Assembly (NCBI GenBank): GCA_965197905.1
Contig: CBDAOB010000004.1
Coordinates: forward strand, 1,696,001-1,760,000
DNA: 64,000 bases
Direction: 5' to 3'
From: Candidatus Latescibacterota bacterium
Lineage (GTDB): Bacteria; Latescibacterota; UBA2968; UBA8231
Below, piece by piece: positions 4,822 through 45,720 of the stretch. The position numbers and the translations under genes were made by a program. Every line of letters starts with the position of its first letter. Within the stretch, counting starts at the first letter, position 1. The notes under the pieces were generated by a model. The model was given only the letters and a program-made list of their open reading frames with translations. It had not been told where the DNA came from and made no database searches.

Positions 4822-4895
4822 TGGCTGCGCCCCAGGGATTCGAACCCCGATAACATGATCCAGAGCCATGTGTCCTACCATTGAACGAGGGCGCA
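4822..4895 (-). tRNA. tRNA-Gln(CTG)
   Basis: Cloverleaf; anticodon loop CTCTGGA; GTTCGAATCC T-arm; encoded CCA. Confidence 0.95.
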
Positions 4896-4904
4896 GCTCG
4901 TTTG

Positions 4905-4997
<93 letters not shown>

Positions 4998-5021
4998 GTA
5001 AGTGCGAACCGGGTGCTCAAC

Positions 5022-5108
5022 TGGCGGAGGGTGAGGGACTCGAACCCTCAAGGGCGTGAGCCCGGCGGTTTTCAAGACCGCTGCCTTACCAATTAGGTCT
5101 AACCCTCC
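5022..5108 (-). tRNA. tRNA-Ser(TGA)
   Basis: Anticodon loop CTTGAAA; long variable arm; GTTCGAGTCC; CCA. Confidence 0.95.
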
Positions 5109-37639: not shown

Positions 37640-38602
37640 CTACGACGAAGGATCCCGTTGTTTCTTGCGATCCATGGCGCGCACATACGCCCGCGTTCGG
37701 TGGCACCACAGCAGGTAGTCGAAGAAAATCGACGGAACGGGCCCCCGCGGTAAGCACCGAAGCAGGAGCGCAACCGGCACCTGAACAAGGGGCGAAAGCG
37801 CCAGTTGATGCGCCCACCTGACAGGAGCGCTGGGATCCATCAGAAAGCTCAATCGCAACAAAGATGCCAACTCCGGGTGTTTCTCCAGGATGAAGGGTAT
37901 CGATTCCGCCCCGTAGGCGCTCATCAGATCGCACAACTCTGCCAGGCTGCGAAGTTCGTGGTGGTTGGATATGGCGGTCGCTTCGTAATAGAAGGCAACG
38001 CCCGCGGACGACAGCCGATAGCCCAACTCCAGATCTTCACCGCCATAAGCGTGGAAGTCTTCGTCGAATAGGCCGACAGTCACCAACGACTGCCGTCTAA
38101 TCGATGAGTTCCCGGTGACGAAGCAGTTGTAGGGCACCACGCTGCCCGATTCAAACCGGTGCACGCCACGTCCTTCGATATAACGAAACAGGGCGTTAGG
38201 TCGGATACTCGTGGCAAAACGGATATTGCCGATACAGACGCAGCTGGCCTCGTGGATCTGGTGAAAGGACTTGTGGGAATGCAGAAAATCCGGCTCAACG
38301 GTCATGTCCCCATCCAGAAACACCACCACCTCCCCGCGGGCGGCGCGTATCCCTGAATTCCGCGCTTTGGCGCGCCCCTGGTTGACCTCGTGTCGTCGCA
38401 ACAACAGCTGAAACGGTTCGGCAATTGCGCGGAGCTCTTCCACCGTTAGAGCGGGAAGACTGCCGTCGTCGACCACAACGATCTCCACATCCGCCGCCGG
38501 AAACTGTTGCTGAGCCAGACTGTCCAGGGTTGCCCGCAGCCGCGCGGGTTCATTGTAGGTCGGGACGACCACGCTGAGGAACGGTTTCAAAGCGACGGGC
38601 AC
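37640..38602 (-). CDS. Glycosyltransferase family 2
   Basis: SVVVPTYN, VVDDGS, FLDGD, GEDLELG. Confidence 0.9.
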   Translation of the reverse strand: MPVALKPFLSVVVPTYNEPARLRATLDSLAQQQFPAADVEIVVVDDGSLPALTVEELRAIAEPFQLLLRRHEVNQGRAKARNSGIRAARGEVVVFLDGDMTVEPDFLHSHKSFHQIHEASCVCIGNIRFATSIRPNALFRYIEGRGVHRFESGSVVPYNCFVTGNSSIRRQSLVTVGLFDEDFHAYGGEDLELGYRLSSAGVAFYYEATAISNHHELRSLAELCDLMSAYGAESIPFILEKHPELASLLRLSFLMDPSAPVRWAHQLALSPLVQVPVALLLRCLPRGPVPSIFFDYLLWCHRTRAYVRAMDRKKQRDPSS

Positions 38603-38607
38603 GGTGG

Positions 38608-39726
38608 TCAAAAACGGGCGTAAAGAGCGGTCAGCTTCTCCACCTCGTGCTCCCAACTGTAGGTGCGGGCCGCCACTCGAGCTGCCTCGGCATAGCGAGC
38701 CATACGGTCGGTATCCGCGATCAAGAGATTGACCTGCTCGGCAACTGCGGCGGGATCCCGTGGGTCGGCCAGGATGCCGGCGCCGCTGTTGCGAACGACG
38801 GGGCCTATTTCCGGAAAGTCACTGGCAACTACAGGCAAACCGGCCATGAAGTACTCGAACAGCTTGTTGGGCATGGAATAAAAGAAACTCTTGCCGCTGT
38901 TCTTGATCAGGCACAACCCTACATCGGCAGAGCAGGTGTACTCATGGAGCTCGGCAAACGGAACTCGGGGCAGAAAAAACACCGAGTTGCCCAACCGGCG
39001 CTGGTCGACTTTCTGCCTGAGCTCGGGCTCGCAAGGCCCGCCGCCCATAAGTACGAGCACAGACTTGTCGAACAGTGCGGCCGCATCGATCTGTTCTAGC
39101 AGGCCATTTTCGGTCAAGAACCCACCTTGATACAGGATTACCGGACGCTGGTCGTCCAATCCCAATGTTTCTCTAATGCGGTTGCTGGCGACAGGATCCC
39201 GGAACACGGGCAGATTTCGCAGGACCGTAACCCTATCTAGTCGATAACGCTTCTCCAGCGCCGCTTTGATCCCCTTGCTGACGGTAATCGTATGGTGAAC
39301 CTTTCGTACCAGACGTTGCTCCAGCCAACTCCAGAACCGCTGAATGGTGGGACGGCTGACAACCCCGGACTGTTCTGTCCAGAATTCGTGGGAGTCGTAG
39401 ACCAACAGGGAACCTTGGCGGGTTGCCACCCGCGCCGCGGGCCACAGGGCATCCAGGTCGTGGGCGTGGTAGACATCGGCTGACAGCGAAGGTAGAGCCC
39501 GTGCGGCCTGCCACCAAAAGGATGGGTACAGGAGGCGTAGGGAGCGCCTGCGGTCCACCGGTATTAGACGAGTCTCGAAACGCCGCCACGGCGCTGAGGT
39601 AATTGCACCCGAGAACGATGAAGAGACGATGGATACGCGATGGCCAGCGTCCTGCAGAGCCGTCGCCTCCCGGTAGATCCGCGCGTCGAAACGCAGGTCC
39701 GTAAAGGCGACCATACACACATGCAT
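38608..39726 (-). CDS. Glycosyltransferase family 4
   Basis: YHAHD, YDSHE, PNKLFEYFMAGLPVVASD. Confidence 0.9.
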   Translation of the reverse strand: MHVCMVAFTDLRFDARIYREATALQDAGHRVSIVSSSFSGAITSAPWRRFETRLIPVDRRRSLRLLYPSFWWQAARALPSLSADVYHAHDLDALWPAARVATRQGSLLVYDSHEFWTEQSGVVSRPTIQRFWSWLEQRLVRKVHHTITVSKGIKAALEKRYRLDRVTVLRNLPVFRDPVASNRIRETLGLDDQRPVILYQGGFLTENGLLEQIDAAALFDKSVLVLMGGGPCEPELRQKVDQRRLGNSVFFLPRVPFAELHEYTCSADVGLCLIKNSGKSFFYSMPNKLFEYFMAGLPVVASDFPEIGPVVRNSGAGILADPRDPAAVAEQVNLLIADTDRMARYAEAARVAARTYSWEHEVEKLTALYARF

Positions 39727-39770
39727 GGTCGAAACTAGAGGGGGGACATCAAGACAAGGCGGGCAGGGAT

Positions 39771-39804
39771 AAAAAAGCAGTCCATCCGATGAAAGATGAA
39801 CTGC
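39771..39804 (-). terminator. Rho-independent terminator of the candidate ncRNA
   Basis: Minus strand GCAGTTCATC-8nt-GATGGACTGC followed by T6. Confidence 0.8.
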
Positions 39805-39986
39805 TCATTCGAGAAAATCAAGAGTGTGGCGATCGTGCGGTGTGTGATCGAGAGCCGCAGACGAGACCTTCAAACGAGGCGGTGTGGGGAGGTATTACTT
39901 TGAAGATCCCGATACCCGAAAAGGGGAATTCGAGTTCTGCGGCACTTCCCGATCATTAGTCACACGCTCAGCGGATCGCCACACTC
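39771..39986 (-). ncRNA. Candidate structured ncRNA (~215 nt, rod-like)
   Basis: 13-bp perfect closing stem 39822-39834/39974-39986 and nested stems. G-U pairs work only on the minus strand. TATAAT lies 6 nt upstream and a terminator downstream. Confidence 0.68.
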
Positions 39987-39992
39987 GAAGCA

Positions 39993-40157
39993 ATTATACA
40001 CTTTTTTGTGTGCGCTACGAAACGTGAACGTATTGCGACTTGCCTACGGTCGACACACAATTTACACACCCCACTGTGTATTGTCAAGAAGAATCTGGGG
40101 CTGATCCACTCACAACCTCAGAGAGAAAATGACACAAAACTGTGTATGCCTTATTAT
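39993..40157. promoter_or_regulatory. Three ACAC-N6-GTGT operators overlapping three sigma70-like promoters
   Basis: Operators at 39998-40011, 40066-40079, 40132-40145. Minus promoters: TATAAT (39998-39993) and TTGACA-N17-TAAATT (40087-40059). Plus promoter: ATGACA-N17-TATTAT (40129-40157). Confidence 0.7.
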
Positions 40158-40204
40158 AGGTAGCGGGCATTCCTCTACATTACATAAAACCAGACGGTAG
40201 AGAC

Positions 40205-40723
40205 ATGGCATTTGCTGAAATAATAAAGAAAGCACGCAAGCGGTTGCGGCTAAGCCAAGCCAGCCTTGGTGGGGAGATCGGGGTGTGGAACACCTACGTC
40301 GGACAGATCGAGAAGGGGGAAAAGGTCCCCTCAGATGAGGTGGTCATAAAACTCGGGAAGGTTCTCGACCTCAACCTGAACGAGTTATTATTGTCAGCGT
40401 ACAAAGCAAAGGCCGACTCGGCCGAAGCACAAAGCCTGTTCACCCAAATGGAAACCGCACTCAACGACCCTGTACTGCAACAGATCGTTTCTTCCACCAA
40501 CCCCATACACCCGGGCGTACTGGCCGCTTTGAGCGACGAGAATATTCGCGCCGCCCTCACCCAAGAAACATGGAGAGAAAGTTTCTCTCGGTGTTACCGA
40601 ATAAACAGCCGCAAAAAACGGAATATTCAGGCGCTGTTGGCGTTGGTGGAAGCGATGAACGACAAACAGTATTCAGCGATGATGAATCTTTTAGAAGCTA
40701 TGGAGCTAGAAGCAGGAGAGTAA
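40205..40723 (+). CDS. XRE-family HTH transcriptional regulator
   Basis: ARKRLRLSQASLG...YVGQIEKGEKVPS HTH_3 pattern; unrecognised C-terminal domain. Confidence 0.88.
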   Translation: MAFAEIIKKARKRLRLSQASLGGEIGVWNTYVGQIEKGEKVPSDEVVIKLGKVLDLNLNELLLSAYKAKADSAEAQSLFTQMETALNDPVLQQIVSSTNPIHPGVLAALSDENIRAALTQETWRESFSRCYRINSRKKRNIQALLALVEAMNDKQYSAMMNLLEAMELEAGE

Positions 40724-41458: not shown

Positions 41459-41797
41459 TTGCCGCCGCTGGTCAGCGTCCACGGGTTCGCGGCTGCGCTC
41501 TTGCTGATTCTTTGTTTGAGCGGCACCTGGAATTGTCGCGACTGGCGCCGCGACCCACGGCACGGGCTCTTGCTTTTGTCCGCAATTTCGCCGCTACTAG
41601 CCTGGCTGTTTTTTCCCGGTCAGCTGTTGATGCTCTTGTCGTTGCCGGCGCTGTTGGTACTGACTTCCATGGGATCCGACTCTACCCGCAATGGATTCGT
41701 CAGCTGCTGTGGAGCGCCCTGGTTGTGGTGTACGGCGCAGATTATTGGCGCATGTTTGGAAGCGGCTGATTTCGGACGCTCCACCTCCTGGAGTTGA
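41459..41797 (+). CDS. Hypothetical membrane protein
   Basis: Hydrophobic ORF whose stop abuts the hrpA start; the frame is open further upstream, to about 41294. Confidence 0.4.
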
Positions 41798-41798
41798 C

Positions 41799-44700
41799 AT
41801 GTCCCCCTTTTCCAGCTTCGACCCCATGCCCGACTCGGCTAGCCATCCGGATACCACCCTCGCTGAACTGCGCGAGCGTTTATCCACGTGTATGCTCCTG
41901 GATCGGGCTCGCATAGAACGGCGACTTCAGCGACTCGACCGCCACAAAGACCGGGCGAAGGAACTCGGCATTCTGCAGGAAAAGGTCGAGCAGTCACTCC
42001 GTTTGCTTGAGCGCCGGCGGCGGGGGCTGCCGCCAACAAGCTATCCCGAGGAGCTGCCTGTCAGCTCGCGCCGCGCCGAGATTCAACGCGCCATTGAAGA
42101 AAACCAGGTCGTGGTGGTCGCTGGCGACACGGGGTCCGGCAAGTCGACGCAGCTGTCCAAGATCTGTCTGGATGCGGGGCGTGGTGTGCTGGGAAAGATC
42201 GCCTGCACCCAGCCGCGTCGAGTAGCGGCCCTCTCGGTGTCGCGGCGAATCGCTGAGGAGCTGGGCGTAGCTTGGGGACGGGAAATCGGGAGCAAGATTC
42301 GCTTTAAAGACCACACCGCCCCCGAGACCTACATCAAGATGGTGACCGACGGCATCCTCCTGGCAGAGATACAGGGAGACGCGGATTTGTTGGAGTACGA
42401 TACCATCATCGTCGACGAAGCCCATGAGCGCAGCTTGAACATCGATTTCCTCATCGGCTATCTGCGTCTGCTGCGTCGGCGCCGTCCCGACTTGAAGATT
42501 GTCATTACCTCTGCAACCATCGATACGGAAGCGTTCTCGGAGGCATTTGACCAAGCCCCGGTAATCCAGGTGCACGGGCGAATGTTCCCGGTTGAGGTCA
42601 GGTACTGGCCCCTGGAAGAACTGCTCGAGAACCGCGAAGAGTACACCTACATCGACGCCGTGCTCACTGCGGTGGAACAGACCCTTCAGGAAACTCGGGA
42701 AGGGGATGTGTTGGTGTTCCTACCGGGGGAAAACGACATCCTCGAGACCCGCGACCGCCTACGGGACCGCGCCGAAGGGGTGGAGATTCTACCTTTGTTT
42801 GGACGCTTGTCCGCCGCCGACCAACAGCGCATTTTTCGGCGCGGAGACCGCCGGCGCATCGTATTGTCCACCAACGTCGCGGAAACCTCGTTGACAGTTC
42901 CGGGCATTCGTTACGTGGTCGATACGGGCATGGCTCGCATCAGCCGCTACAATGCCCGCACCCACACTCATCGGTTGCCCATCGAACCGGTGTCGCAGAG
43001 TTCGGCGGATCAGCGCAAGGGTCGCTGCGGTCGGCTCGAGGGCGGCATCTGCATTCGGCTCTACGGGGAAGAAGATTTTGAGTCGCGTCCCCGATTCACC
43101 TCTCCCGAACTGCAGCGGGCCAACCTCGCGGACGTGATTCTGCGCATGTTGGCCCAGCGGATCGGCGACGTGCGCACGTTTCCCTTTCTGGACCCTCCCG
43201 GGGAACAGGCGATCCAGGGGGGCATCCAGCAGCTCCAGGAGCTGGGGGCCCTAGACCAGCGCCAACGACTCACCCGCTTGGGTCGGCGTATGGCGCGGAT
43301 GCCGATTGCGCCCACTGTGGCCCGCATGGTGCTGCAGGCAGACCAGGAAGGGGTACTGGGAAGAGGTGCTGGTGGTGGCGGCGGCCATCAGCGTGCAGGA
43401 CCCCCGCGAACGGCCGATGGAGCTGAAGGCTCAAGCGGATGAAATGCACCAGCGCTGCGTGCATCCCGAGTCCGACTTCCTCACCCTGACCAACATATGG
43501 AACGCCTATCGCGGATTGGGGGGGCGGCCGACCCAGGGCCACATGCGCCGGTTCTGCAAACAAAACTTCCTGTCGTTCATGCGGATGCGGGAATGGCACG
43601 ACGTCCACCAGCAGATCAAGGAGACCCTGCGCGAGCTGGGCGGTTTCAAGTGGGGCGGGGGTAAATCGAGCTACGAGGGTGTGCACCGTTCAGTGCTTAG
43701 CGGCCTCTTGAGCAACGTCGCCTTGAAGCATGAACGGAATCTCTACCGCGCCGCCCGTGGCCGTGAGGTGATGATCTTTCCCGGCTCGGGCTTGTTCGTG
43801 CGCGGGGACGCCAAGAAATCGGCCAGTCCAGAGTGGATCGTCGCCGCCGAAATGGTCGAGACATCGCGGCTGTTCGCGCGAACGGTGGCGCGCATCCAGC
43901 CGGAATGGCTCGAAGACCTGGGCACCCACCTGTGCCGTTACTCCCACAAGGAACCGTATTACAACGCGCGCTCGGCGCGGGTGCTGGTGCGCGAGACGGT
44001 AACCTTGCATGGGTTGGAGGTGCTGCAGCGGCGCGTACCGTTCAAACGGATCGATCCCGGAGCGGCGACCGAGATTTTTATTCGCGCGGCCCTGGTTCCG
44101 GGCGTGTTGCGAACCCCGCATCGGTTCCTTGAAAAGAACCTGGAACTGCAAAACAAGGTGGAAACGTGGCAGACGCGCATACGGGAATACCACGGTCTGG
44201 ACGTAGAGGAATCCGCCTTCCAGTTCTCCGCCGCCCGCCTGGAGGATGTTTCATCGGTGCACGATCTGAACCGGGTAGTGCGCGACCGCATTTCCGACGA
44301 CGCGGATTTTCTCACCATGAGCGAGCGCGACTTGGTGGGCACTCGGGACACGGCCGTCAACAGGGTGTCTTTCCCGGATTTCCTGCAGGTGGAAGGCCGT
44401 CAGCTTCCCCTGAGCTACACCTATAGCCCCGGCGCGGAAGAGGACGGGCTGACCCTCGCGCTGCCGTATAAAATGGTGGAAGCCGTCGACCCGGAGGTGC
44501 TCGAGTGGCTCGTTCCGGGGTTTCTGGAGGAGAAGGTGGTCCACCTCCTGCGATCGCTTCCCAAAGCGCTGCGCCGGCAGCTGATCCCCATCCCGCAGAA
44601 AGCCCGCGAGATCGCCGCGGACCTGCGGCCGGACGGAGGGCTGTTCATGGAGACCTTGGCGGCGTTTATCGAGAGCCGCTACGGACTGCGGATCTCACCC

Positions 44701-45720
44701 CAGGATTGGGGTGGGGACCCGCTCCCGAAGCACTTGCAGATGAGGGTTGACATTCAGGGCGCCAATCGACAGACGTTGGTGGCGGGGCGCAACCTGGCCG
44801 GCATGGTTGACCAGCTGGAGCGCCACGATACGCCAGTGGAACTAGAAGCCTGGAAGCAAGCCTTGGAGGAGTGGGAACAAACCGAGCTGCAGACCTGGAC
44901 GTTTGGAGATCTGCCGGAGCGAATCGAGATCACCGAAGTCACCGGAGTTTCGCTGGTTGCCTTTCCCGGAATCGAGGTGGGAGATCGCGGTGTCGATCTG
45001 CGGCTGTATCGAAATCGCCGCGAAGCGCAGACGGCCAGCCGATCGGGGATCTTCCGCCTAACGCAGATTCAATTGGAAGAGGAGCTCGCCTGGCTCGAAC
45101 GAAGTTTGCGGGACCTGGATCAATTCCACCAGACAACCCGGTTCATCGGTGATAAGCAAGCGGTCCGCGAGGCGGCGATGGACCATCTGCAACGGCATCT
45201 CATCTTGGTGCCGGAGCCGCCGGCGCTGCAGGTGACTGCGTTCGAGAGCCTGGTGCAGCGCGCGGTAACCGAATCGAAAGGAATCGGACCGCGCTTTCTC
45301 GATCTGTTTGGCGCAATCATCCATCTGCGGATGTCGATTCAACGCCACCCCCATCCGTACCCTGGCATCGAGGACGATCTCCAGCGCCTTGCCGGCACCG
45401 ATTTCCTCTCAAAAACCCCGTTTGCGCGCCTTCCCCACGTGCAGAGGTATCTCAAGGGGGTTGTCATGCGCGCCGATCGCTTCAGGCTGGACCCGGCCAA
45501 GGACCGACAGAAGGTCGGCCAGCTCGAACCGTTCCAGCAGCAGTTTCAAGAACGCGTCGGGGAACGGTACTCGAGGCAGCGATCGGCAATTCTGCAGGAG
45601 GTGCGGTGGATGCTGGAGGAGTTTCGCATCTCCCTATTCGCTCAGGAGCTGGGCACTGAGCAGCCGGTGTCGGCGAAACGACTGGATCGAAAGTTCGAAG
45701 AGCTGCGGTCGTCCCTGTAG
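41799..45720 (+). CDS. hrpA: ATP-dependent RNA helicase HrpA, split by a 1-nt frameshift at ~43358-43360
   Basis: [24 protein letters not shown]; second half with DPRERP and [13 protein letters not shown]. Removing one G from CTGGGAAG joins the two frames. Confidence 0.88.

Follow-up and report, generated by a model that had tools for sequence, protein, structure and literature searches.

The window, a 64,000-nucleotide stretch of one contig from a Candidatus Latescibacterota genome (G000), carries a structured RNA element on its minus strand, with two glycosyltransferase genes (GT4 and GT2) downstream and a divergent gene for an XRE-family helix-turn-helix protein upstream (Table 1). The element begins with a branched rod of 165 nt (39986-39822), which a spacer of 15 nt separates from a terminator-like hairpin; a sigma-70-type promoter and three operator-like palindromes, O1 to O3, are predicted in the region between the rod and the XRE gene. 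A sequence-only reading of the window had proposed a novel rod-shaped small RNA (sRNA) with a C-rich, anti-Shine-Dalgarno-like loop here, and had named a divergent 6S RNA and an attenuating leader as alternatives. It overlooked four things: the XRE gene and the three operator-like sites that go with it, a second hairpin, the probable trimming of the RNA to ∼165 to 169 nt, and a back-joined form of the RNA. Elsewhere in the window, an HrpA-like DEAH helicase gene (41691-45720, plus strand) appears split into overlapping frames (41691-43442 and 43306-45720) by a frameshift or an assembly error. In several searches of G000, the contig regions C1:146-149 kb and C2:458-461 kb gave the same sequence, an assembly overlap or a duplication.

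Table 1. Features of the RNA locus in the window, with an example of the related locus in other families.
Feature	Position	Strand	Basis or remark
GT2 glycosyltransferase gene	37640-38656		Follows GT4
GT4 glycosyltransferase gene	38608..39726	-	Downstream neighbor; probably outside the mechanism
Intrinsic-terminator-like hairpin with U tract	39771..39806	-	Hairpin 39806-39775; pattern search
Branched rod, likely mature RNA, 165 to 169 nt	39819..39987	-	Fold, covariation, RNA-library contig on exactly this span
P1, 3' strand	39822..39834	-	Varies mostly from C to U, keeping a G-U pair
Apical loop, 24 nt	39875..39898	-	UCCCC and CCUCG motifs; closed by P5 (39911-39899 with 39874-39862)
P4 side hairpin	39914..39935	-	Loop UUCCCCUU (39928-39921); fold, alignment, pairing probabilities
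P1, 5' strand	39974..39986	-	Inverted repeat; GUGUG in 55/55 distinct homologues
Extended -10, possible second promoter	39993..40000	-	TGTATAAT; seen in this genome and G002
Palindrome O3, operator-like	39996..40015	.	In the leader, over the extended -10
RNA promoter, sigma-70 type	40059..40087	-	TTGACA-17-TAAATT; predicted start near 40052
Palindrome O2, operator-like	40062..40081	.	In the RNA promoter spacer, touching its -10 box
Palindrome O1, operator-like	40128..40147	.	Overlaps the predicted XRE promoter (40129-40157, +) at its -35 box and spacer
XRE-family protein, 172 aa	40205..40723	+	Divergent; Pfam HTH_3, E 1.7e-10
Sister RNA (loci L193-L217 and L222)	L200:2123-2346 (example)	-	Upstream of XRE

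Folding of the minus strand across 39986-39771 gave a minimum free energy (MFE) of -99.1 kcal/mol (z -9.0), which none of 200 shuffled sequences equalled; the plus strand of the same span folded less well (-86.7 kcal/mol, z -5.3). The many G-U pairs likewise fix the element on the minus strand, as had been proposed. Every stem that had been folded by hand was recovered in the MFE structure, including the 13-bp terminal helix, which is a perfect inverted repeat; the one feature that had to be redrawn was a supposed 25-nt side bulge, which is actually a 7-bp hairpin with an 8-nt loop. The rod comprises the terminal helix P1, helices P2 and P3, the side hairpin P4, and the apical helix P5. The 24-nt apical loop and the UUCCCCUU stretch were unpaired with a probability of 0.87 to 1.0, as had been expected of them, and the terminator hairpin formed with a predicted probability of 0.98 to 1.0 in three transcript lengths. 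A small protein was rejected as the product of the locus: of 55 homologues, only 4 have an ATG that opens the internal frame of 28 codons.

No Rfam family matched over the RNA, at gathering level or at E values up to 10, in keeping with the novelty claimed for it; the only gathering-level matches in the window were three tRNAs in a row at 4825-5108 on the minus strand. BLAST found the region in 20 of 36 genomes of the same family (f1), and a covariance model, R1, was built from these 20 loci, the window's own included. R1 identified a single copy in each of 56 of the 75 f1 genomes, representing 16 of 18 genera, and nothing in 86 sampled genomes from 13 other families of the phylum. Second R1 matches in G030 and G156 proved to be the opposite strand of the same place, and a DNA match in the f2 genome G044 (query bases 353-391, E 0.002) was dropped because R1 gave nothing in f2. 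In G019 and G119, assemblies of one or two contigs that are 94 to 95% complete, GT4 directly follows the upstream lipoprotein-like gene, with the RNA absent between them. An R1 run on G017, G027, G032, G019, and G119 at E values up to 5, in which no positive genome was included, gave no match. The RNA is not universal in its family.

The helices covary among homologues, as the sequence-only reading would require. In a structure-blind MAFFT alignment of the 20 homologues, 95.4% of 818 cells pair, a level reached by none of 500 shuffles, with slid controls pairing at 39 to 48%, and 14 of the 41 pairs changed on both sides; the scored structure was derived from the same 20 sequences, which favors it, and related sequences are not independent, so that this alignment-based covariation is support for the fold rather than proof. 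The six modeled pairs of P4 hold in 98% of cells, two of them having changed on both sides. A model-fitted alignment of 55 distinct rows, which leans toward the model, raised the number of pairs changed on both sides to 25 of 41, and the core length in these homologues was 147 to 172 nt (median, 156). In one homologue (L108:3022-3201), 11 nt of the P1 3' strand are duplicated in tandem, and L109 has an identical core length. We conclude that the conserved structured noncoding RNA is real.

Across the 55 homologues, the loops are conserved while the stems vary. The deepest constants, besides GUGUG in P1, are CCC in the P4 loop (54/55), UCCC in the apical loop (53/55), and the closing CCUC-purine or UCUCG of that loop (54/55); P4 CCCUUU was kept in 45 homologues and the full 18-nt core of the apical loop in 40. 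The spacing from UCCC to CCUC is held at ∼7 to 9 nt, and the letters between them vary. ACCUCC had been equated with the anti-Shine-Dalgarno core of 16S rRNA, and the 16S end of this genome indeed reads ...GAUCACCUCCUUUCU; ACCUCC itself is kept in 42 of the 55, less than UCCC. The C-rich motifs match the Shine-Dalgarno usage of the genome (GGAGG, GAGG, GGGAG). Among the 20 closest homologues, the seven loop changes between CCUCC and CCUCG are all C to U or A to G; they fall in five rows, or about four lineages, and transitions are common anyway. Because the 5' strand of P1 is near-constant while its partner drifts from C to U, P1 may be read by a protein or nuclease.

The RNA is preceded by a promoter of the form TTGAC-N18-TAnnnT in 54 of 57 loci, with 4 to 125 nt separating the -10 box from P1; at the longer distances, the 5' end probably arises by trimming or, here, from a second promoter. 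A transcription start at the first paired base had been predicted; the extended -10 behind it is present in this genome and in the congener G002, but the promoter conserved across the family lies further upstream. The three palindromes share the consensus AnACACAC-n4-GTGTGTnT and are spaced by 66 bp here and by 64 to 67 bp in most relatives. The nearest solved relative of the XRE protein is the P22 c2 repressor domain (E 1.6e-05), and the ESM Atlas returned generic helix-turn-helix clusters only. XRE adjoins the RNA in 44 of 57 loci; operator-like sites were found in 42 of these 44 and in 2 of the 13 loci without an adjacent XRE gene, kin not being independent, and the two exceptions (G031 and G036) have an XRE-like match elsewhere in the genome. 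Thus XRE may be lacking where the RNA and its promoter are present, and the palindromes accompany XRE. A weight-matrix scan of G000 gave 44 sites above 12 bits, among which the three local sites rank 2, 6, and 8; the top match recurs in paralogous sequence, and no XRE regulon stood out. From this arrangement, the XRE protein is predicted to repress both itself and the RNA.

Several loci depart from this layout. In six homologues without XRE (L099-L102, L110, and L111), an A/T-rich stretch, which we take to resemble an IHF site, occupies the place of the third palindrome, at most 45 nt upstream of the first helix. The XRE match in G020 (L059, G020:C1:2198918-2200503) is in two pieces ∼1.1 kb apart, with stop codons, and in G044 (L057) a transposase-like insertion parts XRE from a sister RNA by ∼1.9 kb; these two disruptions are natural mutants for the regulation.

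The sister RNA was found in families f2 and f4, where the orthologous XRE gene faces an RNA of ∼210 nt with five predicted hairpins and a different scaffold. The promoter and palindromes are laid out as at the window's RNA; the neighbors of XRE are different, presumably rsmG- and mnmE-like genes. Of 26 sister loci, 22 were folded (the last four were left out) and 16 of these entered an alignment (A4), in which the predicted loops contain CUCCCCA in the first hairpin, invariant, and UUCCCCU in the last (16/16). A covariance model of the sister RNA, R2, matched 25 of 31 f2 genomes, 5 of 22 f4 genomes, none of 3 f3 genomes, and none of 75 f1 genomes, so that this RNA occurs in 30 of the 132 genomes of the class and never together with the window's RNA; R1 gives no score on it. 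The same regulator and the same loop words on another scaffold provide the best argument that the words, and not the rod, do the work. Two unrelated scaffolds with the same loops under one repressor amount to a natural experiment in the requirements of an sRNA.

The region 39300-40700 was compared with four RNA runs of three studies, listed as marine and sponge metagenomes and chosen because they contain the stretch. The data are assembled contigs, relatives included, which carry no information on strand, ends, or level and in which DNA can be present. Contigs of all four runs cover 39819-39987, which hints at the discrete transcript that the sequence-only reading would require, and one in X1 spans 39827 to 40027, into the leader. 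No contig lay on GT4 or the terminator and almost none on XRE; a hole in contig cover proves nothing. In X2, a single 199-nt contig reads to 39987 and continues at 39819. The shorter of its two parts counts 78 letters, the joint has no shared letters, and each part contains one differing letter. Since 199 equals 169 plus 30, the contig has the form that a closed cycle would take in a 31-mer assembly. The joined order is absent from the genome, which points to a circular RNA or to a ligation or reverse-transcription artifact across the paired ends. The back-joined form was seen in this one contig of one of the four runs, and the RNA may be circular: it is either a closed 169-nt circle or a library artifact. 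A search for circle junctions in metagenome contigs gave 38 matches, every one an unrelated hairpin without the loops of the RNA, on a contig at least 1.6 kb long, so that it does not bear on the circle. G000 encodes an RtcB RNA ligase elsewhere (G000:C4:622909-624009, L235).

The proposal of a C-rich, anti-Shine-Dalgarno-like sRNA stood as regards a novel structured RNA with unpaired, conserved loops, but no conserved target emerged from searches with those loops. Elsewhere in G000, perfect complements of the apical loop reached 14 nt at most, the others being 11 to 12 nt with no pattern, and duplex scans over 4,908 start regions, called crudely, gave no outstanding match. A lead to yebC was rejected, its site not being conserved. 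The one surviving lead, the ribosome-binding site of rpoC, is weak, and we consider it an improbable target. Its AAAGGGG, complementary to the P4 loop, occurs in 33 of 57 rpoC loci and is missing in all eight f1 genomes of the genera g16, g18, and g9 that gave no R1 match. It is also present in genomes or genera where neither RNA model matched (G040, G052, G057, G055, and G059), and missing in G004, G020, and G022, which have a near-canonical C4-5/U3-4 P4 loop. The lead is weak because the site looks ancestral for the class, occurs without the RNA, is absent where the loop is kept, and has undergone few independent changes, only a handful on a quick rpoC tree of 57 rows, one of them too short for it. 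Independently of the RNA, most rpoC genes of the class seem to have GTG or TTG as their start codon, preceded by an AAAGGGG-type sequence (33/57), an unusual conserved ribosome-binding site.

Our best reading is that the locus encodes a trans-acting, XRE-repressed sRNA that blocks translation by pairing its C-rich loops with ribosome-binding sites, which we hold tentatively, at somewhat under an even chance. The sigma-70 promoter would drive the RNA and be repressed by the divergent XRE protein; XRE would bind the three palindromes, whose distance of about six helical turns suits a looped or wrapped repressor complex. The leader and terminator would then be cut off, trimming the RNA to its terminal helix, and the invariant P1 would be read by a nuclease, a ligase, or a protecting protein. 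The two C-rich loops would pair with G-rich ribosome-binding sites without Hfq, which was not found in G000 (91% complete), and a circular form would serve as a stable reservoir or as a more stable active form. Two features typical of sRNAs of the LhrC/RsaE kind are present, namely, UCCC motifs that are conserved and unpaired and a stand-alone gene with its own promoter and terminator, the latter recognized by consensus patterns only. Against the sRNA reading, sRNAs that act by base pairing usually manage with less than a large, stable scaffold and an invariant terminal helix. In a bolder version of this proposal, possible but doubtful, the repressor-switched chromosomal sRNA would mature family-wide to a closed 169-nt circle, with P1 as the cleavage and ligation signal and the two C-rich loops displayed on a nuclease-proof rod. 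That the same circular regulator tunes the supply of RNA polymerase through the rpoC ribosome-binding site would be a long shot.

The C-rich loops could equally be read by a protein. The RNA would then be a decoy or scaffold whose repeated YUCCCC loops are bound by an RNA-binding protein (KH-domain or cold-shock-type, for example) and titrate it under XRE control, much as CsrB does with CsrA. Such a role, which we regard as rather unlikely, fits the repeated motif as well as the sRNA reading does: the motif occurs twice in f1 and at least three times in f2, it survives a complete change of scaffold, the UCCC-CCUC spacing is kept while the intervening letters vary, and no conserved mRNA target emerged. 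However, no candidate protein other than XRE is encoded beside the RNA, the motifs match the genome's Shine-Dalgarno usage, and all seven of the loop changes would keep pairing with a fixed partner, common as transitions are. The two alternatives raised by the sequence-only reading, 6S and attenuator, are weakened. A highly diverged 6S- or Ms1-like RNA, binding RNA polymerase as a promoter mimic, is unlikely in our estimate, the reason being that no conserved central bubble is predicted, which makes this role less likely than that of an XRE-repressed sRNA. The 6S slot is open, given that RF00013 matched in none of 41 genomes of the class, RF01685 did not match in G000, and the transfer-messenger RNA (tmRNA), RNase P RNA, and signal recognition particle (SRP) RNA lie elsewhere in G000; for that reason we also rejected the last three as identities of the element. 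The RNA is single copy and rod-like, with paired ends and a length of 147 to 172 nt, compared with ∼160 nt for Aquifex 6S and a 6S length class of ∼160 to 200 nt (PMC9130861), and the P1 5' strand equals E. coli 6S at 14 of 16 bases. That likeness was noticed post hoc and was reached by 25 of 2,000 shuffles, and no more than 6 of the 20 homologues stay below the 5% mark against shuffled sequences; the matching E. coli strand borders the bubble, whereas here it ends the molecule. No Rfam 6S score was obtained at E values up to 10. Outside hairpin loops, the maximal unpaired run in centroid folds is 6 nt in the median and 12 nt or more in 9 of 55 homologues, against 17 in E. coli 6S; in MFE folds, 3 of 55 reach 12, and E. 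coli 6S itself reaches only 9. The sister RNA has no rod, and the RNA is cleanly absent from the locus in G019 and G119. A Y RNA was also considered and rejected, as the TROVE protein (Ro60/Rsr, PF05731) was not found in G000 at its 91% completeness.

The position of the element ahead of GT4 and GT2 would also suit a cis-acting leader or attenuator of these genes, the short RNA being a by-product of termination. GT4 lies within 900 nt downstream in 55 of 57 loci, and the stretch from terminator to GT4 is short and by eye shows no conserved Shine-Dalgarno sequence or promoter, so that read-through may feed GT4. We nevertheless find the attenuator very unlikely. The terminator forms almost completely in all three transcript lengths and no antiterminator was predicted (ligand- or protein-driven switches lie outside the model); in G011 and G020 the RNA is present but no GT4 gene lies within 900 nt, G004 has ∼200 extra bases between the two, G019 and G119 keep GT4 without the RNA, and the sister RNA precedes a different gene. 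It is more far-fetched still that the circle itself is the point, in a structural or parasitic RNA that is viroid-like or ribozyme-processed and whose loops are incidental. One contig does close on itself without shared letters at the joint, and an RtcB ligase is encoded elsewhere in the genome, but the joint appears in one run of four, the RNA occurs once in the chromosome, where the order of genes around it is fixed, Rfam contains no matching ribozyme or viroid family, and a 20-nt loop pattern has no exact match in viral contigs.

What the analysis provides is a well-supported noncoding RNA family and a sister family, for a lineage in which no described small RNA was found by a search on Latescibacter(ota), subscription journals and supplements being outside its coverage; the predicted regulator and operators make the proposal testable in a surrogate host. 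Catalogues of unnamed small RNAs from ocean metatranscriptomes could hold this sequence. If the preferred sRNA reading is true, regulation through UCCC loops would reach beyond the low-G+C Gram-positive bacteria, into a lineage of high G+C content for which no Hfq was found. Should the RNA bind RNA polymerase instead, it would take the vacant place of 6S in the class; it resembles 6S (RF00013, RF01685) and Ms1 in rod, paired ends, single copy, and the 14/16 local match and roughly in size class, and differs from them in its lack of an Rfam score, its large conserved apical loop and side hairpin, and its loss from some near-complete genomes.

For the circular form, the closest parallels are DucS and the circular SRP RNA of Bacillus, which are noncoding RNAs that likewise have a stem at their ends and that show back-joined reads (PMC10504365). 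The DucS authors suggest RtcB or Rnl ligases and caution that reverse transcription can fake back-joined reads (PMC10504365). For DucS, RNase R treatment and junction probes supplied the proof of circles (PMC10504365), whereas the circle proposed here is represented by one assembled contig in one of four runs; sequence relation to DucS was compared through Rfam only, and the window's RNA is conserved over 16 of the 18 genera of its family. Should the circle be real, it would offer a conserved model of bacterial RNA circularization, a matter that the DucS paper leaves open (PMC10504365). The XRE gene recalls phage-type divergent switches such as P22 c2 and RstR, in which an XRE helix-turn-helix protein and three palindromes over back-to-back promoters are also found. 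Here, however, the divergent partner is an RNA and not a protein gene, the sites are 64 to 67 bp apart, and the locus is surrounded by chromosomal genes of housekeeping type, no phage gene having been noticed next to it.

The nearest functional parallels are the UCCC-motif sRNAs, LhrC of Listeria, RsaE and RNAIII of Staphylococcus, and FsrA of Bacillus, with which the window's RNA shares several UCCC motifs in loops and its own promoter and terminator and would share pairing with G-rich Shine-Dalgarno sequences (PMC4132741). LhrC binds a G-rich site ahead of the start codon by means of three UCCC motifs, which lie in loops and in a single strand, and similar binding is cited for RNAIII, RsaE, SprD, and FsrA (PMC4132741). 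There is no sequence or Rfam relation to these RNAs, so that the likeness is one of working only, and the host belongs to a different phylum with 58% G+C, the UCCC motif having been called characteristic of low-G+C bacteria (PMC4132741). The loops are carried not by simple hairpins but by a closed three-way rod whose terminal helix is invariant, and control appears to be exerted by a dedicated divergent XRE protein with three phased sites. The RNA represents a genuine new family, which may well work as the UCCC-loop sRNAs do and which differs from them in its scaffold, its predicted dedicated three-operator switch, and perhaps its circularity.
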